DNA from: Erysipelotrichaceae bacterium MTC7
GTDB lineage: Bacteria > Bacillota_I > Bacilli_A > Erysipelotrichales > Erysipelotrichaceae
Reading direction: 5' to 3'
DNA length: 32,000 nt
Assembly (NCBI GenBank): GCA_001695645.1
Contig: LVZN01000056.1
Coordinates: 75,333-107,332 of the forward strand
Position 1 is the first letter of the stretch. Every line of letters begins with the position of its first letter. Below are positions 4,400 through 26,582 of the stretch, piece after piece. Position numbers and translations under genes: made by a program. Under the pieces are notes generated by a model. That model was given only the letters and a program-made list of their open reading frames with translations. It searched no databases and was not told where the DNA came from.

Positions 4400-4655
4400 A
4401 CAAAAAAAACCTTCATCCAAAGGACGAAAGTTTACCTTACGTGGTTCCACCTTTTTTTATTGGTACTTCGCAGCACCAACCTCTTCGAGTACTATCATAC
4501 TCTAGCAAGATAACGGTTGCAGGGACACCGATGAAGACTACTTACGTTCACCTTCATAACTCCAAGACGTGTTCACAGTTTTGCCAATCTTCTTTTTCAC
4601 CAACCAAGAAGTCTCTACGTTTATTAAAACCGTTACTATTTCTTATCATCGTTTA
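4400..4655 (-). promoter_or_regulatory. T-box riboswitch leader, histidine-specific (specifier CAC)
   Basis: Read on the minus strand. Stem I base and K-turn-like CGATGATAAGAAATAGTAACGG, an AGAGA element, and a GGTGAAAAAG distal region. The helix ACGGTTTT/AAAACTGT closes onto the specifier loop GAA-CAC-G (CAC = 4571..4569). F-box CCGTTA is present. The T-box sequence AAAGGTGGAACCACGTAAG lies at 4440..4451. It is followed by the terminator hairpin TTCGTCC-TT-GGATGAA plus U8 at 4402..4430. Confidence 0.8.
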
Positions 4656-4666
4656 TTGTTAGCATC

Positions 4667-4695
4667 ATTATAAGATTTCTTTTTATGATTGTCAA
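4667..4695 (-). promoter_or_regulatory. Sigma-A type promoter of the his operon (TTGACA-17-TATAAT)
   Basis: Minus-strand TTGACA at 4695..4690, an exact 17-nt spacer, and TATAAT at 4672..4667. Both hexamers match the consensus, and the promoter sits directly upstream of the T-box leader. Confidence 0.75.
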
Positions 4696-4728: not shown

Positions 4729-4758
4729 ATAAAATAGAAAACCAGATTTCTCTGGTTT
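4729..4758 (-). terminator. Rho-independent terminator after the 111-aa gene
   Basis: Minus strand AAACCAGA-GAAA-TCTGGTTT (perfect 8-bp stem, 4758..4739) followed by TCTATTTTAT. It begins 8 nt after the TAG stop at 4766..4768. Confidence 0.7.
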
Positions 4759-4765
4759 CTTTGAA

Positions 4766-5101
4766 CTAAAGATAACTAGCCCAACGTGGGGTTCTGCCCC
4801 ATGGCATGGTATGGAAATATACGCGAATTCCATTTCCATTAGCTCCATTCTTGAAGACTTTTGCCGCTCCTCCAAGAACGGTCGCAATGGCTGTTGCATA
4901 AGGTGCAGCTGCAGCACAGAAGTAAGCAATGGCACTAGAAACAGTTGATCCAACACTCAACCACCAAGAGATGTTTTTACAATCCGTTTTTGTCATTGTA
5001 TACGTCCATTGTGCATGGCCAACATTTGTCCAATACCCTTGTCCATAACGTTCTTGTTGTAAGGATAAAGCAGCATAATGTTTAGGTAAAATAAGTTCCA
5101 T
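4766..5101 (-). CDS. Hypothetical 111-aa Trp/Ala/Gly-rich hydrophobic protein; candidate secreted or membrane-active peptide (possible bacteriocin-like cargo)
   Basis: Strong SD (AAAGGAGGAACC-ATG). Sequence MELILPKHYAALSLQQERYGQGYWTNVGHAQW...ISWWLSVGSTVSSAIAYFCAAAAPYATAIATVLGGAAKVF...PWGRTPRWASYL. It has a central Ala/Gly-rich hydrophobic stretch of about 40 aa, 7 Trp and 2 Cys. It lies directly downstream of the peptidase-ABC/HlyD genes. I recognise no family. Confidence 0.75.
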   Translation of the reverse strand: MELILPKHYAALSLQQERYGQGYWTNVGHAQWTYTMTKTDCKNISWWLSVGSTVSSAIAYFCAAAAPYATAIATVLGGAAKVFKNGANGNGIRVYFHTMPWGRTPRWASYL

Positions 5102-5143
5102 GGTTCCTCCTTTCTAAGCGAGGTGCTCACCTTATATTCACCT

Positions 5144-5171
5144 GATAAAAAAAGAATCCTAAGATTCTTTT
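5144..5171 (-). terminator. Rho-independent terminator between the HlyD-like gene and the 111-aa gene
   Basis: Minus strand AAAAGAATC-TTAG-GATTCTTTT followed by TTTATC. The stem and its A/U flanks begin right at the TAA stop (5172..5174) of the upstream gene. Confidence 0.65.
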
Positions 5172-6392
5172 TTAGTAAGTAGTTTCCTTCAGTTGCAAAA
5201 GTGTAAGTAGATAATCCACATAGGTTTCTTCTTCATAGATGATTTTACAAGTCACGGGCATCCCTTTTTTTAATTGTTGAAAACTCTTGGTATCCTTAAC
5301 TTTTGGATAATTCATCATCACCAGCATACGATACACAAGTTGCCTACCTTCAGCACTATCTTGAGATAAGCTTCCTTGATCAATTGAGGTTACCATACCA
5401 GGAATACTTGGATATACATTGGAGTTCAAGCCATTCAATTCAATCAAGACTGGTTGACCAACTTTGACTTTGGCAATTTCATTGGCATCAATATACGTTT
5501 CGACAACCCATTTTTTTGGTTCGTTTTCACTTATTTGGGCAATGACTCCATTGCTTTGAATGCTAAGTCCTTCATACATTGGGTTTAGATAATGCACATA
5601 CCCTTCATTGCTAGCACGTATGACATAGGTCGATGCACTAGTTGATGCTAAAAGTGTATTGCTTTCCAGTTCTTGTTTTTGCGTTTCTACTTGCGTTCTT
5701 TGCGTCCCCAATTCACTAACAAATTGATAAAATAGTTTCTCGCTTTGCGGTACGTTTTGCAGTTCTTGTTGCAACTGTTTGATTTCTTCTTGAATATTTT
5801 CTAAACTTGCTTGTTTTGCTTCTTGTTCCAAGGAATCTGTAGTTTTCGACAGGGCTTGTTGTTCCTTGTGAAGCTTTTCTTTTTTCAGTGCTAAATTTTC
5901 CTGAACACGTTGCTTGGTTACTTGCTCTTCAGCTAACTGCAATAAGTAGTATTCCACTTTCCCATAATATTCTTGTTGTAGTCCTTTGTTTTGTAAGTGG
6001 TTTGTTTTTTCACGTAACGACTGTTCATACAAATCCATAATGGATAATTTCTCTTTGGTCTGTGCGTACTGGTCATGTAATGCTTCTACTTCGCTTCCAT
6101 TTTTTCCATCACTTAATACCAATAAGATTTCACCCGTCTTGATATAATCACCCTCATTTGCTTCAATGGAAACAACCACACCTTGTGCATTACTGCTCAC
6201 ATAATGATTCTCTTTAGAAACAATACTTCCTTGACCGTAAACCACATAGGGTTTTGTAAAACGTGTAATCGCGATTCCAAAACCAATCATAAATAGTAAT
6301 GTGATTAGGAGGGTATATATGGCGTATTTGGGTGGCTTACGATCAAAGAAAAATCGTGTATAGGTTAAATCATGAATGTTGAATAATTTCAC
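5172..6392 (-). CDS. HlyD/LcnD-type ABC-exporter accessory (membrane fusion-like) protein
   Basis: 406 aa with an N-terminal TM helix (YAIYTLLITLLFMIGFGIAI). It has a lipoyl-like IKTGEILLVL, a long Q/E/K-rich coiled coil (about residues 95-250) and a C-terminal VKVGQPVLIEL beta region. GTG start at 6392 with GAAGGGG SD. It overlaps the upstream gene by 23 nt. Confidence 0.8.
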   Translation of the reverse strand: MKLFNIHDLTYTRFFFDRKPPKYAIYTLLITLLFMIGFGIAITRFTKPYVVYGQGSIVSKENHYVSSNAQGVVVSIEANEGDYIKTGEILLVLSDGKNGSEVEALHDQYAQTKEKLSIMDLYEQSLREKTNHLQNKGLQQEYYGKVEYYLLQLAEEQVTKQRVQENLALKKEKLHKEQQALSKTTDSLEQEAKQASLENIQEEIKQLQQELQNVPQSEKLFYQFVSELGTQRTQVETQKQELESNTLLASTSASTYVIRASNEGYVHYLNPMYEGLSIQSNGVIAQISENEPKKWVVETYIDANEIAKVKVGQPVLIELNGLNSNVYPSIPGMVTSIDQGSLSQDSAEGRQLVYRMLVMMNYPKVKDTKSFQQLKKGMPVTCKIIYEEETYVDYLLTLLQLKETTY

Positions 6393-6852
6393 GACTTGCC
6401 CCTTCTAATGGAACATACATAACTGCGTGTATACACGTTTCTGAGTTTTCATAAAATAAAGTATACAATTCGCCTGTACTGACATACTCATGCTCATACA
6501 AGTACACACTGAGTTTTTGGTGCGATAGATCAAAAAACCTTGGATGATCACAAAACTCGACACGTAAACAGTTCTCTAGTGAAATTGAGGCTATTGTTTC
6601 AAACCCAGGTGTATCGTGTTCGCTTTGCACCATCAGGATGTAATCCAGTAATAAATCACCTTGTCCAGTAAACGTGCTACCACAGAGTTTATGTATCAAC
6701 GGTCCTGTAGTTTGAACCTTTTGTAGCTGGATGCGATTGATAAATTGTTGTAAATAACGTTCAAATTCGTATACTTGAATTTGTTTGATGTTTTCTATTG
6801 CAAGCTGGGTAAACACGATGGATTCATGTTCAGTAATTTTTATTTGTTTCAT
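6370..6852 (-). CDS. Hypothetical 160-aa soluble protein (pattern reminiscent of a GyrI-like/effector-binding fold)
   Basis: I trimmed the track ORF (6370..6945) to the ATG at 6852. That ATG is preceded by AAAGGAGGATT and lies 10 nt after the ABC stop codon. Sequence MKQIKITEHESIVFTQ...MYVPLEGASREIIQHS has no TM segment. Its alternating beta/alpha pattern in two halves resembles the SbmC/GyrI-like architecture. This is a by-eye impression only. Confidence 0.6.
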   Translation of the reverse strand: MKQIKITEHESIVFTQLAIENIKQIQVYEFERYLQQFINRIQLQKVQTTGPLIHKLCGSTFTGQGDLLLDYILMVQSEHDTPGFETIASISLENCLRVEFCDHPRFFDLSHQKLSVYLYEHEYVSTGELYTLFYENSETCIHAVMYVPLEGASREIIQHS

Positions 6853-6862
6853 AATCCTCCTT

Positions 6863-9025
6863 TTATTGTCTTTCAAGCATTCGATAGTAATATCCTTTGC
6901 GAAGATACAATTCATCATGATTTCCTGACTCCAATACACGTCCACTGGTTAATACATGAATCACATCACACTTACGAACCGTGGAAAGTCGATGCGCAAT
7001 CACAATACGTGTATAACCGGCAAGTTGATTGAAGATGACATCACTGATCAATGCTTCGCTTTGGCTATCTAAGTTACTTGTTACTTCATCAAAGACGTAG
7101 ATATCTGGTTTCTTCAATAATGCACGTGCAATCCCAATGCGTTGTTTTTGTCCACCAGATATATTGCTTGCACCTTCTTGTAAGATACTTAAATAGCGAT
7201 GTTCAAGCCCATCAATCCATTCATGAATTCCGACTTGCTTACATACACGAACAATTTCTTCAAAACTTACATCAGGGTTCGCAAGTTTTAGATTGTCCAA
7301 AATGGTACCAGAAAATAGTTGAACTTCTTGTGGAACATAGGCAATCTTGTTTCGCAGCGTTTGTAAGTTTAGATCTTTAATGTTGTAATTACCAATGGTA
7401 ATATGCCCATCTCCTACTTCATAGTAGCGCAGCAACAAGCGAACCAATGTCGTTTTCCCACCACCACTATCACCAACCAAACCAACGACTTCTCCCGGTT
7501 TGAAACTAAGATTTAAACTTTGAAATAACGGTTTGTGTTTTTGATAGCCAAATTGTACCTGGGTAAAATGAATCATTTTATCCAATGTAAAAGTATCAAT
7601 ACTTGCTTCTTGGTGTTCCTCACTTTCTAATTCCATAAGTTCACGTAGTCGTGAAATAGATATGCTAACTTCTTGAAAACGCAACTGTAAGGACACGAGA
7701 CTTTGAATCGGTTCCATAAAATATTGAGACAACGTTTGAAAAACTAGCAAGTCACCAATGCTCATTTTTTGTTGCATAATAAAGTACGCTCCGACCCCTA
7801 AAAACAAATAGTTGCACAAACCATTAATGGAATTTGCTAGAAAGGATTGCAAGATGGATAGTTTTCCCTCCTGATAACCAATCGTCAATGTTTTAATAAA
7901 ATTTTGTTCAATTTGCATCAAACGAAGTTGTTCATTGTTTTGCGACTTGACCGTATCCATGTTTTGCAAGGTTTCCACCAATGTTGCATTCATTTGTGAA
8001 TTGGTTTCCATTTGTTTCACGTTGATTGCTTTGTATGGCTTTTTAAAAACATAGATTAAGACAATGTTAATACAAACAATAACTAACAAGATTAGAAACA
8101 ACGTTTGATTCAAGCGGAATAAAATCAGTGATGAACACAAAGCTAACACGATGTCCATCAACAAAGAAATAGCAACATTAGAAAAAACTTCTTTAATTGT
8201 GATGGCATCTTGAAAACGTGTCAAAATATCTCCTACTTTGCGATTTTTAAAGTACCCGTAAGGTAGATACAAAACGTGTTTAAAATAACCTAGTAACAAT
8301 GGAATATCAATTTTTCTAGAGAAAAATAACAAGACATGTTCACGTGCTGCACTCAAAAGATTTTGAAGCAACAAGATAAAACAGAAAAATACCAAATACA
8401 TGATGAGTAATTGACCTCGGTTGTATGGAATAATTTCATCCATCACAATTTTTGAAAACAGAGAAGATAATAACCCCAATACAGTCAAGAGTATCGACAT
8501 GACTATGACTTGTATGACCAGTTTCTTATGTGGCAAAATCAGTGATGAAAACAAGGTTAGCAACGAATGACTTTTCATGGCATCTCTTGTCACTTCTTGA
8601 TTTTTCACCAACACAATCACAATTCCACCAAACATTGTCTCGAGTTCCATTTTACTCACTTTGCAAACACCTTTGAGTGGATCAGCTAGTATGTATTGAT
8701 CATTCTTACAAATCTTATAAAGCAAAACATAATGCCACTGTCCACTTTCATTACTTACTTGTAAGATGATTGGAAAATTCATCTTTTCATGTAAGTCATT
8801 GATACTTGTTCGCACTGCCTGTGCTAAATATCCATGTCCCTGTAAGGTTTCCACCATACCTTCGATGTTGGTTCCACGCAATTGAACACCAACTTCTTCA
8901 CGTAAGGTTTCATAACTATACGCGACACCATCGTGTTGAAATACACTTGCGATAACTGCAACACCACAATCGTAATCATCCCTTTGATAAACACAAGTGT
9001 ATCGTTTTTTACGAATCAGGTTCAT
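6863..9025 (-). CDS. Peptidase-containing ABC transporter (C39 cysteine peptidase + 6 TM + ATPase; bacteriocin/peptide exporter type)
   Basis: 720 aa. The N-terminal C39 has catalytic-type residues in YQRDDYDCGVAVIASVF and WHYVLLYK...ILADPLKG. Multiple TM helices follow. ATPase motifs: Walker A GDSGGGKTT, Q-loop VPQEVQLF, signature ISGGQKQRIGIARAL, Walker B IYVFDEVTS and H-loop VIAHRLST. Confidence 0.9.
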   Translation of the reverse strand: MNLIRKKRYTCVYQRDDYDCGVAVIASVFQHDGVAYSYETLREEVGVQLRGTNIEGMVETLQGHGYLAQAVRTSINDLHEKMNFPIILQVSNESGQWHYVLLYKICKNDQYILADPLKGVCKVSKMELETMFGGIVIVLVKNQEVTRDAMKSHSLLTLFSSLILPHKKLVIQVIVMSILLTVLGLLSSLFSKIVMDEIIPYNRGQLLIMYLVFFCFILLLQNLLSAAREHVLLFFSRKIDIPLLLGYFKHVLYLPYGYFKNRKVGDILTRFQDAITIKEVFSNVAISLLMDIVLALCSSLILFRLNQTLFLILLVIVCINIVLIYVFKKPYKAINVKQMETNSQMNATLVETLQNMDTVKSQNNEQLRLMQIEQNFIKTLTIGYQEGKLSILQSFLANSINGLCNYLFLGVGAYFIMQQKMSIGDLLVFQTLSQYFMEPIQSLVSLQLRFQEVSISISRLRELMELESEEHQEASIDTFTLDKMIHFTQVQFGYQKHKPLFQSLNLSFKPGEVVGLVGDSGGGKTTLVRLLLRYYEVGDGHITIGNYNIKDLNLQTLRNKIAYVPQEVQLFSGTILDNLKLANPDVSFEEIVRVCKQVGIHEWIDGLEHRYLSILQEGASNISGGQKQRIGIARALLKKPDIYVFDEVTSNLDSQSEALISDVIFNQLAGYTRIVIAHRLSTVRKCDVIHVLTSGRVLESGNHDELYLRKGYYYRMLERQ

Positions 9026-9182
9026 CGTATTTTCGTATAAGCATCAAGGAAATAAACATGATAAGCGTAAAAAGAAAAATAAGATTTGTGTATTGTAAAG
9101 GAATGATTTGAAAGGTCACTAACAATCCTGTTCCAATTGCCAGCCAACTGCTCATTTGATAAACGATATGTATGTATTTCAT
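9009..9182 (-). CDS. Hypothetical 57-aa protein with two predicted TM helices
   Basis: I trimmed the track ORF (9009..9284) to the ATG at 9182, which is preceded by AACGGAGGTTTTCT. Sequence MKYIHIVYQMSSWLAIGTGLLVTFQIIPLQYTNLIFLFTLIMFISLMLIRKYDEPDS. Its 3' end overlaps the ABC start codon by 17 nt, which suggests translational coupling. Confidence 0.55.
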   Translation of the reverse strand: MKYIHIVYQMSSWLAIGTGLLVTFQIIPLQYTNLIFLFTLIMFISLMLIRKYDEPDS

Positions 9183-9230: not shown

Positions 9231-9262
9231 AAAAAAAAGAAGCCACTCTACTGAGTAGCTTC
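9231..9262 (-). terminator. Rho-independent terminator after the GntR gene
   Basis: Minus strand GAAGCTACTC-AGTA-GAGTGGCTTC (10-bp stem with one G-U) followed by U8. It begins 6 nt after the TAA stop at 9268..9270. Confidence 0.85.
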
Positions 9263-9267
9263 CATGT

Positions 9268-11100: not shown

Positions 11101-11541
11101 TTGACTATCAACTAAGGCTTGAAGTTGGTTTAACATAAGATTCATCTTCTTTTTACTTGAACGTGCGTATAACTTACTCATTAAACTAAAGTTCAAGTTT
11201 TTACTGGTTTTGTCTGAAACAAAATCTTCTGAATATGTAATGCCAAAAAGATCGTCATCTTCATCTTCTAGATGATAAGAAACCGTATTGACTCCTTGTG
11301 CACTATAAAACTTTGCAACGTACACTTCATTTGGTACAAGCTGGGCAAGTTCTACTTTCACGCGTCCTGCTTTCCCCATCTTTGTTTGCAGTTTTTTATA
11401 GTATGTAAAACCCGGATGCAAATCTGTTTCTGTGTATACCTTGCCATCTTCACTATTTGCATTGATATCTGCTAAAACAGACTCAATAAAAATATGATAG
11501 CAAGTTTCTTTTTTTCCCCGTAGTAATTTAGTTATTTCCAT
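11095..11541 (-). CDS. Hypothetical 148-aa protein (probably DUF3284-like, PTS-associated)
   Basis: ORF MEITKLLRGKKETCYHIFIESVLADI...; soluble. Its size and its position between PTS genes and DUF871 match what I recall for DUF3284 proteins in Firmicutes cellobiose-PTS operons. I could not verify the family assignment. Confidence 0.6.
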   Translation of the reverse strand: MEITKLLRGKKETCYHIFIESVLADINANSEDGKVYTETDLHPGFTYYKKLQTKMGKAGRVKVELAQLVPNEVYVAKFYSAQGVNTVSYHLEDEDDDLFGITYSEDFVSDKTSKNLNFSLMSKLYARSSKKKMNLMLNQLQALVDSQE

Positions 11542-11954: not shown

Positions 11955-12266
11955 TTATTTATCAAATCTTTTGTAAACATCGATGAACTCATTTGCTAAG
12001 ATCTTGAATGCTTCTGCACTCATCAGTTGATCTTCAGCATGAAGCAATAACAAAGTAACTTTGTCTAGTTCACCACTTGCTTCTTGTTGAATCAATTTTG
12101 CATGTGCATGGTGTCCCTCTGTAAAGAATTTTTCCCCTTCACTAATTGATTCCTGTGCTTTTTCATAATCTCCAGCTTTGGCGTGTTGAATCGCTTCAAT
12201 GAAGCAACTTCTTGCGCCTCCAACATTAGAGATAATTTGAAAACAAACTAATTCTAAACCTTCCAT
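11955..12266 (-). CDS. PTS lactose/cellobiose-family EIIA component
   Basis: 103 aa with the typical three-helix IIA(Lac/Cel) signature: ISNVGGARSCFIEAIQHAKAGDYEKA...HHAHAKLIQQEA...LLLLHAEDQLM. SD AGGAGG at 12278..12273. Confidence 0.85.
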   Translation of the reverse strand: MEGLELVCFQIISNVGGARSCFIEAIQHAKAGDYEKAQESISEGEKFFTEGHHAHAKLIQQEASGELDKVTLLLLHAEDQLMSAEAFKILANEFIDVYKRFDK

Positions 12267-14340: not shown

Positions 14341-16034
14341 TCAACATAAGATTCAACAATTGAAAATGGTGCAGGACCAATATTTAAAATTGCTTCATGG
14401 AATTTTTTAGCATCAACATCATCATAAGCTTCTGCTAAATCGATAAATTTCTGTCCACCAACGTAATATTCAGCAAAGATTCCTGGTGTAACTGCTAATG
14501 TTGTATAGATTTCATTTGTATCACCAAACATCGATAGATACTGTTGCAAATCCGCTTGTGTTTGTCCATCGTAATTGATCATCAAATCAATCATCAACAA
14601 CAACGCGTAATTTAAACGCTCCATACTATCGTTCGCTTTAGCAACTTCCGGTTTTAAGGCATACTTTGTTGTATAGTATTGCACATAGTTTGCCCAACCT
14701 TCTGTATAGCCACTGTAATCCATAAGTGAACGGATTAACGGTTGTTCTTGTTCTTTGTAATATTGCTTTTGGTACATATGTCCTGGATAACCTTCATGGG
14801 CGATGGTCGAATAGTCATCTTCCGTAAAGTCGCCATTTAGAATCATCTTTTCTTTTGTATGTTCTTCATCAATCGGACTTGTAAAATACGCAGCTGCCGT
14901 ATTCCCTAAAATCTTACGCATCGACTCTGGCACGATTTCCATTTCGTAATCTAAATCGCGAACCGCTGGAAAATCATCTTTTGTATCTTTGCTTAACTCC
15001 TCCAGTACTTTATTTGGATCGGTTTGTTTTGTATACACACCTGAACTTTCCATTTCCAAAGAATTGCTATCCTGCATTTCATTCAAGTAACGTGTATACA
15101 TATCTTGCAAGTATGTTCGATACGTTTCAATATCCATACCTGTTGTTCCTTCAATTTGAATTGCGTATAATTCGCGTCCATTTGCGTATTGAGACATGCC
15201 TTCATCAACCGCTTTTACTTGAAGGTTTGCCAAACCTGTTGCCAAGTTGGTATATGCAGTTTGTAAGGCACCATCAACTAGTGCACTATTTTGCTCAATA
15301 TATGCTTCTATATCAGCTTTTGATAGGTTCTTAACATTTGCAATTCCCTTTTTGAATGAATCTTTCAGGAAACTATGATCTCCACTTACATAGGTATCAA
15401 CAACTTCTTTGGTTTTGGCAATGTGCATTGGTTGCATACCAAATCCTTTATCTTGACGTTCTTGTTCAAATGCGACCAATGATTGAAAATACGCATCTGT
15501 TGTTTCTAACAAATGGAGATAACTTTTGATGTCTTGTTCATCTCTAAATGTGTAGAAATAGAAATTAAACGGAATATTCCCCGGAGCTCCGCGATTGTAA
15601 TCCAAATCATTGTTCATCAAGTAATACAAATCTTCAACTGGAATGCTATCGTCTGGTTGATAAGCATCAAGTAATACATCGTATGTTAGTTGTTGTTTTT
15701 CACTTAACGAGTCACGATCAAAAGCTTTAATCTTGGCATAGATTTCATTTCCTTGGTTGATACTCTCTTCGAAGTCTTCATAACTTACGAGTTTTTGTTC
15801 GTAAAGAGTCTCTTTACTGTAACCAAATGCCTCCTTATCAGCAAGAAAGTAATTTAAACTGTAATCTGTTTCATCGAATACTTCACCAATTAATGAATCA
15901 ACGTAGTTTGTAAACTCTTTGTTTTCATTCTTATCTGATAGAGCTGTTGCTGGTTTGCTTTCTTTGTTGCTTGAACAAGCAACAAGACCCATTGCTAAGA
16001 CACACACCAATAATACTTTAACTAATTTTTTCAT
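14325..16034 (-). CDS. DUF885-family lipoprotein (putative metallopeptidase-like)
   Basis: 569 aa. The lipoprotein signal MKKLVKVLLVCVLAMGLVAC-SS has a lipobox. The HEGYPGHMYQ motif is typical of DUF885. Confidence 0.75.
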   Translation of the reverse strand: MKKLVKVLLVCVLAMGLVACSSNKESKPATALSDKNENKEFTNYVDSLIGEVFDETDYSLNYFLADKEAFGYSKETLYEQKLVSYEDFEESINQGNEIYAKIKAFDRDSLSEKQQLTYDVLLDAYQPDDSIPVEDLYYLMNNDLDYNRGAPGNIPFNFYFYTFRDEQDIKSYLHLLETTDAYFQSLVAFEQERQDKGFGMQPMHIAKTKEVVDTYVSGDHSFLKDSFKKGIANVKNLSKADIEAYIEQNSALVDGALQTAYTNLATGLANLQVKAVDEGMSQYANGRELYAIQIEGTTGMDIETYRTYLQDMYTRYLNEMQDSNSLEMESSGVYTKQTDPNKVLEELSKDTKDDFPAVRDLDYEMEIVPESMRKILGNTAAAYFTSPIDEEHTKEKMILNGDFTEDDYSTIAHEGYPGHMYQKQYYKEQEQPLIRSLMDYSGYTEGWANYVQYYTTKYALKPEVAKANDSMERLNYALLLMIDLMINYDGQTQADLQQYLSMFGDTNEIYTTLAVTPGIFAEYYVGGQKFIDLAEAYDDVDAKKFHEAILNIGPAPFSIVESYVEKALK

Positions 16035-26232: not shown

Positions 26233-26582
26233 ATAAATAACGCATATAAGCCATGTTCTGTACTCCGAAGAGTGGTAACCATTTATCTACACTTACGTGT
26301 CCCTATTGAACTTCGTTTTGTTCGCTAGAGTTCCCCTACCAAAATTTGGGTTTCTCGCTTGTGGGGTTTACCCGTTCCAGTCTTTACGTTTCCATAAAGC
26401 ATCGTCACTGTGGCACTTTTAAAGACGCTATCCATAGTTGCCCTTAGGATCTTGTCAGCCGTTAGCTTACGCTACCTAGATTTATTTTTTCATCTAGCAC
26501 AAACACTACAGTCATCACAGACTGTGCGAGCATGGACTTTCCTCTACTTTTGCAAGCAGCGATTACCCTGCGTTATTTTTAA
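26233..26582 (-). ncRNA. rnpB: RNase P RNA, bacterial type B
   Basis: The minus strand carries the universally conserved blocks GAGGAAAGTCCATGCTCGCAC, AGTGCCACAGTGACGA, GGTAAACCCC, GAGCGAGAAACCCAAATTTTGGTAGGGGAAC and ACAGAACATGGCTTA. Order and spacing match B. subtilis RNase P RNA. P1 is formed by AAATAACGCA (26578..26569) and TGCGTTATTT (26244..26235). The ends are approximate, within about 5 nt. Confidence 0.92.

Follow-up and report, generated by a model that had tools for sequence, protein, structure and literature searches.

We analysed a 32,000-nt stretch of the genome of Erysipelotrichaceae bacterium MTC7 (contig LVZN01000056.1, positions 75,333 to 107,332; the whole stretch is called the window below). 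On its minus strand the window carries a block of five genes, one of which encodes an ATP-binding cassette (ABC) exporter with a C39 peptidase domain. An earlier note on this DNA had described the block as a self-contained export locus built on a peptidase-containing ABC transporter (PCAT), with three uncharacterised partners and without a canonical double-glycine (GG) cargo. As set out below, the alignments instead point to the fifth gene as the cargo gene: its product of 111 amino acids (aa) has an N-terminus homologous to canonical GG leaders, and its presumed cut site reads G-Q-G. The five minus-strand open reading frames (ORFs) lie exactly where the note had placed them (Table 1). The overlaps it had given are likewise right: the 57-aa and ABC genes share 17 nt (9009..9025), the 160-aa and HlyD genes 23 nt (6370..6392). 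The bracketing terminators are present as terminator-like hairpins on the minus strand (9263..9238 and 4759..4738). Compared with orthologues from Breznakia all five genes are under purifying selection (dN/dS 0.04-0.19) and are therefore real genes.

Table 1. Features of the five-gene block, in window coordinates
Feature	Position	Strand	Remark
Upstream block boundary, intrinsic terminator of the upstream gntR gene	9238..9263	(-)	11-bp stem, 5 G-C pairs, T-run
57-aa protein with two transmembrane (TM) segments, candidate membrane immunity protein	9009..9182	(-)	first gene of the block
720-aa PCAT: C39 peptidase, six-helix transmembrane domain (TMD), nucleotide-binding domain (NBD)	6863..9025	(-)	Pfam
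160-aa acidic soluble protein	6370..6852	(-)	internal ATG of a 191-codon ORF
406-aa HlyD/LcnD-type accessory protein, N-terminal TM anchor	5172..6392	(-)	GTG start
A/T-rich 11-bp hairpin with U-tract, directly 3' of the HlyD stop codon	5148..5173	(-)	fold of 5185..5102
111-aa cargo precursor gene	4766..5101	(-)	
Precursor leader, residues 1-22, MELILPKHYAALSLQQERYGQG	5036..5101	(-)	alignment with canonical-GG relatives
Cargo core, 89 aa plus stop codon	4766..5035	(-)	
Downstream block boundary, intrinsic terminator 3' of the cargo gene	4738..4759	(-)	9-bp stem, T-rich tail

The 720-aa protein matches the Pfam families Peptidase_C39 (PF03412, E 8e-25, 87.6 bits at a cut-off of 22), ABC_membrane (PF00664, E 1e-40, 140 bits) and ABC_tran (PF00005, E 7e-29, 102 bits). 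The catalytic motifs that had been read from its C39 domain (DYDCG, WHYVLLY and ADP) are present and align with the Cys, His and Asp of the solved transporter PCAT1. Gln14 (oxyanion), Cys20, His98 and Asp115 are invariant across six orthologues and are aligned with the catalytic residues of PCAT1. This transporter of Clostridium (Acetivibrio) thermocellum (4ry2) is also the closest solved relative, with a full-length match over residues 4-718 (E 3e-145). Against the model TIGR01193 (bacteriocin_ABC) the exporter scores 496.4 bits, under the curated cut-off of 523.85; such a near miss indicates a divergent subfamily and not a different fold. The gene evolves with a dN/dS of 0.092 relative to Breznakia. 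From these matches we predict a peptidase-containing ABC transporter that would cleave a leader and drive export with ATP. The 406-aa protein matches HlyD_3 of Pfam (E 4.6e-12, 47 bits at a cut-off of 22) and stays below the cut-offs of TIGR01843 (104 versus 209 bits) and of the LcnD/ComB-type model TIGR01000 (61 versus 259 bits). Its gene has a dN/dS of 0.074 relative to Breznakia, and orthologues occupy the same position in all loci. With C39, ABC_membrane, ABC_tran and HlyD_3 domains in one block, the description as a self-contained PCAT export locus was borne out.

PCAT1 exports a 66-aa cargo that is made from a 90-aa precursor, CtA (PMC6959990, PMC8277102). Its cavity has been estimated at 15,000 cubic angstroms compared with 9,000 for CtA (PMC6959990). 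By linear scaling the 89-aa core of the window would need ~12,000 cubic angstroms, which makes its export as an unfolded chain plausible.

A strictly canonical GG peptide is indeed missing from the locus: a scan of the 32-kb window for ORFs from start to stop codon, 25-160 aa long, gave no stand-alone small ORF with a canonical GG, GA or GS leader. Matches fell solely inside reading frames of the his operon and of components of a phosphotransferase system (PTS), and the idea that some other GG-leader ORF in the 32 kb provides the cargo was rejected, since none lies outside housekeeping genes. A reading of the locus as cargo-less did not hold, because the canonical GG leaders of relatives of the 111-aa protein align onto its residues 1-22. 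Such relatives are few. A word-indexed search returned a single one, from Breznakia (86 % identical), an exhaustive HMMER search just four small ones, and tblastn against plasmids none. The relatives P0005, P0007 and P0008 carry leaders ending in EEMxY[IVL]DGG where the window reads ERYGQG. In P0005, which is 50 % identical, the leader MGLMLSLPKRYDEIEEEEMQYIDGG is followed by YWTHVGHAEW; the leaders of P0007 and P0008 end in LPTNYVEIEQEEMMYLDGG and LPAHYVDVDQDEMEYVDGG, respectively. All are of the type LPxxYxEIExEEMxY[IVL]DGG, with hydrophobic residues at -12, -7 and -4, Glu at -8 and a terminal GG. Aligned with these three, the precursor of the window (MELILPKHYAALSLQQERYGQG, then YWTNVGHAQW) places its GQG on their DGG. 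The same placement was obtained with hhalign when the leader profile of the family was compared with the cargo leader of Bacillus thuringiensis described below (94 % probability). This homology marks the 111-aa gene as a GG-type precursor gene whose cut site is no longer GG. By alignment, the gene belongs to a small precursor family with a 22-residue N-terminus homologous to canonical double-glycine leaders.

The strict pattern of Gly at -2 and Gly, Ala or Ser at -1 is broken in the window by Gln at -2 (RYGQG before YWTN). In the orthologues the leader ends in EHFAQG, ELVGEG, EVVGEG, EITGEG, EIVGKG or EVFGKG, each time followed by YWT. Across eight orthologues this amounts to a clade motif of its own, namely Glu at -6, a hydrophobic residue at -4, Gly or Ala at -3, Gln, Glu or Lys at -2 and an invariant Gly at -1 before YWT; the residue found at -4 is Y, F, V or T. 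Where the consensus of GG leaders has Leu(-12), Glu(-8) and Leu(-7), the canonical relatives have I/V, E and M. The window leader reads A, Q and Q at these positions in raw numbering, in which a one-residue length difference blurs the register. An invariant Leu-Pro occupies positions -18/-17 of the window leader and -19/-18 of the canonical members. Six positions of the C39 domain (window residues 11, 29, 61, 78, 89 and 114) separate exporters with G-x-G cargo from those with GG cargo. The comparison revealed no interpretable change, and none of the six could be assigned to the S2 site. An internal VLGG before AAKVF (residues 75-78) was considered as an NHLP-like cut site and rejected, as the GG is not kept in P0004, L017 and L019 (VLGYSA).

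The core that would remain after cleavage carries a net charge of +6. It contains small-xxx-small repeats over precursor residues 45-77, a central zipper-like hydrophobic region rich in Ala, Gly and Ser (maximum KD19 of 1.64) and a conserved C-terminal NGIRVYFHTMxWGRTPRW. These properties suggest a putative secreted membrane-active protein. With a dN/dS of 0.043 relative to Breznakia the cargo gene is the most constrained of the block. Among the most divergent loci the identity of the core is 52-60 %, compared with 42-48 % for the PCAT, 27-40 % for the HlyD protein, 29-36 % for the 160-aa protein and 25-35 % for the 57-aa protein where tblastn detects one. Conservation is lower in the leader, with a mean pairwise identity of 0.54 versus 0.65 for the core. 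Sequence and profile searches of the PDB with the 111-aa protein, the 160-aa protein and the cargo of Clostridium estertheticum gave noise only, and CtA was not matched. One further database match, the 887-aa metagenome protein P0006, was rejected as a relative. It consists of tandem repeats of ~69 aa, each with DGTWTYTVAATAPC, which matched cargo residues 17-38 (GxxxWTYTxTKxDC) thirteen times, and the motif GTWTYTV was all that matched. We take this for a probable compositional or motif coincidence, although the two proteins share a beta-hairpin-like motif.

The five genes stand together in seven loci of the Breznakia lineage. The same five in the same order were found in L001 (Breznakia sp.), L016 (Breznakia blatticola), L017 (Breznakia pachnodae), L018 (Breznakia sp. 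PF5-3), L019 and L022, the last with a different right flank. Orthologues thus came from the four Breznakia loci L001 and L016-L018 and from metagenome contigs (L008, L019-L021 and L022). A natural deletion variant is found in L008, a Breznakia pachnodae-like contig of metagenome ERZ27245258 (L008 3763..4150 compared with L017 5623..10005). The deletion starts at the first 16 nt of the PCAT gene and stops 38 nt short of the cargo gene, between identical flanks. It has removed PCAT, the 152-aa gene, HlyD and a 52-aa ORF; of the first three no trace can be detected. What has been kept in the gntR/hisZ slot is a 54-aa two-TM gene beside an intact 111-aa cargo gene. In L008 the locus may thus be in an 'orphan toxin plus immunity' state, with the two-TM gene as the candidate for the immunity role.

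In L018 an extra gene pair separates the HlyD gene from the 112-aa cargo gene (L018 4367..4835). It encodes a 95-aa paralogue of the cargo with a canonical leader ending in NEMAYVDGS, and this paralogue has its own 56-aa two-TM ORF. The exporter of L018 seems to handle two kinds of precursor, one canonical and one with G-K-G, and the canonical paralogue means that this exporter clade has not abandoned canonical substrates. The Breznakia pachnodae-like loci carry a second two-TM ORF of 48-52 aa between the HlyD and cargo genes (L019 11682..11828, L017 9786..9944); the 70-bp spacer of the window contains nothing equivalent.

The first gene of the block encodes a 57-aa protein with two hydrophobic segments (maximum KD19 of 2.22) and has a dN/dS of 0.185 relative to Breznakia. 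Two-TM ORFs of 54-60 aa occupy the same position in L001, L016, L017, L018, L019, L022 and L008. Canonical members of the cargo family in L006 and L010 are followed by two-TM ORFs of 59-62 aa. Small TM proteins after cargo genes were observed in L006, L010, L018, L023, L024, L026, L027 and L029; the small TM genes behind cargo elsewhere are unrelated. Even without the exporter, in L008, the two-TM gene remains beside the cargo gene, which is the pattern expected of an immunity protein. Contrary to the earlier view that no immunity protein is recognisable in the block, the 57-aa protein is, judged by this pairing, a likely candidate for an immunity protein that would protect the producer.

The third gene (A4S06_04520, protein 100 % identical) encodes a soluble 160-aa protein with a net charge of -10 and no TM segment; its dN/dS relative to Breznakia is 0.064. 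In the loci of the Breznakia lineage that have the exporter it always lies between the PCAT and HlyD genes, and it is lost together with both in L008. A tblastn search of plasmids identified ORFs of 157-172 aa in the slot between PCAT and HlyD genes, overlapping both, on three plasmids of Bacillus thuringiensis and on pCF007-D of Clostridium estertheticum. Homology to the 160-aa family over the full length was supported by hhalign (98.9 % for the 157-aa protein of B. thuringiensis, 98.2 % for the 165-aa protein of C. estertheticum). Downstream of HlyD, B. thuringiensis has two Gly/Ala-rich proteins of 113 aa (MSNLVLPSNYVEIENEEMEYVDGG, then YYINN) and C. estertheticum one protein of 110 aa (MSEMALRLPNNYVDVDGDEMEYIDGG, then SSVL), and in both species the cargo genes are followed by genes for multi-TM proteins. 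On the B. thuringiensis plasmid pSCG364 (L023 941..2635) the system lies ~2 kb downstream of a gene for a 564-aa helix-turn-helix regulator and is followed by one for a 288-aa multi-TM protein.

Scanning metagenomes, we found seven more loci in which a PCAT gene stands directly upstream of a 157-aa gene, with HlyD next wherever the contig extends. The precursors of L026, L027 and L029 are 125, 108 and 137 aa long, have LPxxY...EY[IV]DGG leaders and are followed by variable TM proteins. Across the distant loci the cargo measures 108-137 aa and has LPxNY...EMEY[IV]DGG leaders wherever sequence past HlyD is available. From the plasmid and metagenome loci it follows that the recurrent core consists of a PCAT, a soluble protein of ~160 aa, HlyD and a precursor of ~110 aa with an LPxxY...GG leader; among the loci of this subtype it is the immunity-like membrane proteins that vary.

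The earlier note had called a soluble 160-aa gene between ABC and accessory genes unusual. Such a gene is co-conserved with the exporter in the seven Breznakia-lineage loci and, more distantly, in Bacillus, Clostridium and metagenomes. The note had taken two findings together as evidence against its reading: standard GG-leader neighbours of related exporters, and small genes that do not travel with the exporter. The outcome is mixed: the distant exporters do adjoin standard GG-leader proteins, whereas the 57-, 160- and 111-aa genes are co-conserved and not incidental. None of the three small proteins matches Pfam or NCBIfam; for the 160-aa protein the negative Pfam result extends to its four closest relatives. 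Two distant members of the 160-aa family align with DUF5085 (PF16895) over the full length but below threshold (16.7 and 15.2 bits at a gathering cut-off of 30, E 0.01 and 0.03). A weak match (E 0.0036) was obtained between the B. thuringiensis member and a model for a transcriptional activator, in the C-terminal half of the model. The pattern of the 160-aa sequence (beta-alpha-beta-beta twice, with a C-terminal YVPL) would fit a duplicated strand-helix-strand-strand (SHS2) fold.

We conclude, with a probability of about 0.68, that the block is a bacteriocin-like toxin export locus that represents a distinct and recurrent PCAT subtype with a variable small membrane protein alongside, its function being deduced from gene content and conservation. 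According to this proposal the precursor would be synthesised in the cytoplasm, where the acidic 160-aa protein could bind the cationic, hydrophobic, zipper-like core, keep it harmless and soluble and perhaps pass it to the transporter. The C39 domain would dock the leader via LPxxY and the hydrophobic positions and cut after Gly22. The ABC dimer, together with the HlyD-type protein, would then export the 89-aa core, which starts with YWTN and would attack the membranes of competitors. The 57-aa two-TM protein would shield the membrane of the producer from the outside. That the 160-aa protein, a candidate chaperone or immunity factor, binds the hydrophobic core of the precursor before export is a step to which we give slightly less than even odds. 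In L008 the partner was lost with the exporter and the cargo kept, a pattern more in keeping with an export-linked helper than with an indispensable antitoxin.

Several points weigh against this proposal. The narrow cleft at the active site of C39 domains is held to explain the requirement for Gly-Gly (PMC6959990, PMC7018657, PMC6363468). Gln, Glu or Lys at -2 conflicts with such a cleft, so cleavage at GQG is an assumption. Activity, cleavage and export alike are predictions from sequence. For an essential cytoplasmic antitoxin, L008 is awkward, because it has lost the 152-aa partner and retains the cargo intact. The 160-aa protein of the window itself matches no family, PDB profile searches with it were empty, and hhalign of its family against E. 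coli SbmC (GyrI-like) gave no match, the latter being a weak test. AlphaFold2 models based on two-sequence alignments reached a pLDDT of 36 for the 111-aa and 33 for the 160-aa protein and are unusable for reading the fold. The core evolves more slowly than the exporter; bacteriocin toxins usually differ in this respect. Finally, no clear promoter was detected ahead of the block, and no regulator or inducer system lies within it.

A stronger form of the proposal would hold two things at once: that this PCAT subtype of Gram-positive bacteria needs a dedicated cytosolic protein of ~160 aa, similar to GyrI/DUF5085, to sequester the hydrophobic zipper of a membrane toxin of ~90 aa ahead of its export, and that the C39 domain of the Breznakia lineage processes G-[Q/E/K]-G and so breaks the Gly(-2) rule. 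We consider this combination doubtful. If true, it would be the PCAT counterpart of the two-compartment immunity found for toxins of type VII secretion systems (T7SS).

The alternative that survives best is a decaying or re-purposed cargo. The 111-aa protein could be exported uncleaved, with the C39 domain serving for docking only, or work as a membrane protein bound to the cell independently of the PCAT, and the exporter would serve a substrate encoded elsewhere. G-[QEK]-G in place of GG in all eight orthologues would be understandable on these terms, as would the poorly preserved acidic run and -7 hydrophobic position of the window leader and the lower conservation of leader than of core. 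The L008 cargo gene, intact without PCAT, 152-aa gene and HlyD, and the canonical GS-leader substrate of the L018 exporter point the same way. However, the altered site forms a conserved motif of its own (Glu -6, hydrophobic -4, G/A -3, invariant Gly -1) and is not random decay. The five genes remain together in seven loci, one of them differently flanked, the C39 catalytic residues are invariant at a PCAT dN/dS of 0.09, and the 32-kb window holds no other GG-type ORF. We regard decay or re-purposing as unlikely and prefer the reading as a toxin export locus.

It is quite improbable, in our estimate, that the 89-aa product is a signal, an adhesin or a surface factor, perhaps one that serves life in the insect gut, with the 57- and 160-aa proteins as helpers of assembly or export. 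The unusual conservation of the core, above that of the exporter, does not resemble fast-evolving toxins and would suit such a role. The confinement of the family to one insect-gut lineage and a few metagenome relatives also speaks for it, and Pfam, NCBIfam, PDB and plasmid searches revealed no resemblance of the core to that of a described bacteriocin. Against it, a cationic small-residue zipper with tiny TM partners matches membrane-active bacteriocins and toxins of the Cdz and TelE type (PMC5380434, PMC10434224). The block has no sensor kinase, regulator or receptor gene, in agreement with the earlier statement that two-component and quorum regulators are missing, and the B. thuringiensis cargo weakly resembles Bacteriocin_IIc (E 0.023). 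Least probable of all is that the 111-aa protein is itself an immunity or structural membrane protein and the true substrate lies elsewhere in the genome: its hydrophobic centre, its place behind a hairpin with its own ribosome-binding site and the lack of GG, GA or GS at the expected place would allow this, but its N-terminus is homologous to canonical double-glycine leaders of paralogues and distant relatives, canonical GG precursors occupy the same slot downstream of HlyD in B. thuringiensis, C. estertheticum, L026, L027 and L029, its Ala/Gly/Ser-rich segments are not classical TM helices, and immunity proteins are not known to carry export leaders.

Of the remaining features, the terminator that had been proposed between the HlyD gene and the 111-aa gene stands as a hairpin but is weak, with an A/T-rich 11-bp stem. 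Our terminator scan required at least 3 G-C pairs and therefore did not pick it up. The 84-nt region from HlyD to cargo has a folding energy of -19 kcal/mol (z -2.1), and the hairpin might tentatively act as an attenuator or a weak terminator in front of the cargo gene. This gene is preceded by a strong AGGAGG ribosome-binding site. Between the block and hisZ lies a T-box leader (window 4417..4658, minus strand; Rfam RF00230, 124 bits). A perfect consensus promoter (TTGACA-17-TATAAT, 4695..4667) stands before it, and a terminator-like hairpin (4433..4407) forms its end, so that the his operon is apparently controlled by tRNA. The window further contains a bacterial class B RNase P RNA (26242..26574, minus strand; Rfam RF00011, 280 bits). 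In the PTS/MupG sugar operon of the Breznakia-lineage loci examined, two small ORFs, of 71 aa and of 51-52 aa, are conserved between the IIA gene and the DUF3284 gene (L001 3154..3557, L008 945..1336); they have no family assignment. In the window the equivalent stretch is enclosed by the ORF that ends at 11541 and the one that starts at 11955.

Compared with PCAT1-CtA, LcnC/LcnD, ComAB and BlpAB, the locus shares the active C39 domain joined to an ABC TMD and NBD as well as an accessory gene of the HlyD/ComB type. With PCAT1-CtA it also shares the precursor gene within the locus and a cargo that is a small protein and not a short peptide. It differs from PCAT1 and the class II exporters in its cut site, G-Q-G where theirs is G-G/A/S, and in the soluble protein of ~160 aa that is translationally coupled between the ABC and accessory genes. 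Further differences are the conserved N-terminal LPxxY of the leader and the scores below the cut-offs of TIGR01193 and TIGR01000. A leader motif at -22 to -18, including Pro at -18, is used by RtgAB of Streptococcus pneumoniae, which relies less on the hydrophobic residues at -4, -7, -12 and -15 (PMC7018657). The invariant Leu-Pro of the window family recalls this N-terminal motif, and a role of LPxxY in recognition is a lead only; Rtg substrates, however, still end in GG, and Rtg has no 160-aa partner.

The cargo itself resembles the Cdz system of Caulobacter crescentus, in which the exporter CdzAB secretes the glycine-zipper proteins CdzC and CdzD (84-86 aa) and CdzI provides immunity (PMC5380434). 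Both systems combine small, leader-bearing cargo, rich in Gly/Ala and small hydrophobic residues, with a type I/PCAT-like ABC protein and adaptor and with a membrane immunity gene alongside, which is a candidate here. In contrast, Cdz is Gram-negative, relies on two proteins whose leaders end in G[G/A/S], lacks a soluble 160-aa partner and shows no similarity in cargo sequence. The published description of Cdz-like proteins asks for 60-151 residues, G[G/A/S] as the end of the leader, one or two glycine zippers and a short polar or charged C-terminus (PMC5380434). The 111 aa of the window precursor fall within this length, and the leader ending fits the relatives but not the window. Its core has Ala/Ser-based small-xxx-small repeats and no strict GxxxGxxxG, whereas the B. 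thuringiensis cargo has a true G-xxx-G-xxx-A.

A parallel for the soluble partner comes from glycine-zipper toxins of the T7SS: the DUF5085/GyrI-like proteins TipE and ExiA/ExiB bind the glycine zippers of TelE and EsxX in the cytoplasm of the producer and neutralise these toxins (PMC10434224, PMC12744356). In these systems (TelE/TipE of Streptococcus gallolyticus, EsxX/ExiAB/ExiCD of Staphylococcus aureus) separate membrane proteins protect from the outside and persist as orphans (PMC10434224, PMC12744356). The partner gene for a soluble alpha/beta protein of ~150 aa next to the gene of a membrane-depolarising zipper toxin would be shared, and the 54-aa gene of L008 would correspond to an orphan membrane gene. 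The T7SS toxins depend on a T7SSb and LXG domains, the present locus on a PCAT and a GG-type leader, and the match of the 160-aa family to DUF5085/GyrI-like proteins is sub-threshold. The cargo family and its partner suggest a parallel with cytoplasmic immunity to these toxins.

Export of bacteriocin-like proteins by a PCAT is known. What appears to be new, as judged from the comparisons above, is a conserved soluble third component, a G-x-G cut site and a cargo family without described relatives. We found no paper on Breznakia bacteriocins or on the architecture PCAT-160-aa protein-HlyD, and as far as our searches reached, a Bacillota exporter subtype with an extra soluble component is undescribed in Pfam, NCBIfam, PDB and the literature. 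The puzzle of an exporter without cargo is resolved, and the smaller ones of the role of the 160-aa partner and of processing at G-x-G take its place. For genome mining the locus implies that searches for PCAT substrates by GG, GA or GS leaders can overlook conserved, selected cargo with a G-x-G site. The locus is present in the culturable type strains Breznakia blatticola DSM 28867 and Breznakia pachnodae DSM 16784, and its canonical-GG version on B. thuringiensis plasmids. Cleavage specificity and the role of the 160-aa protein are thus directly testable in the G-x-G system and its canonical relative.

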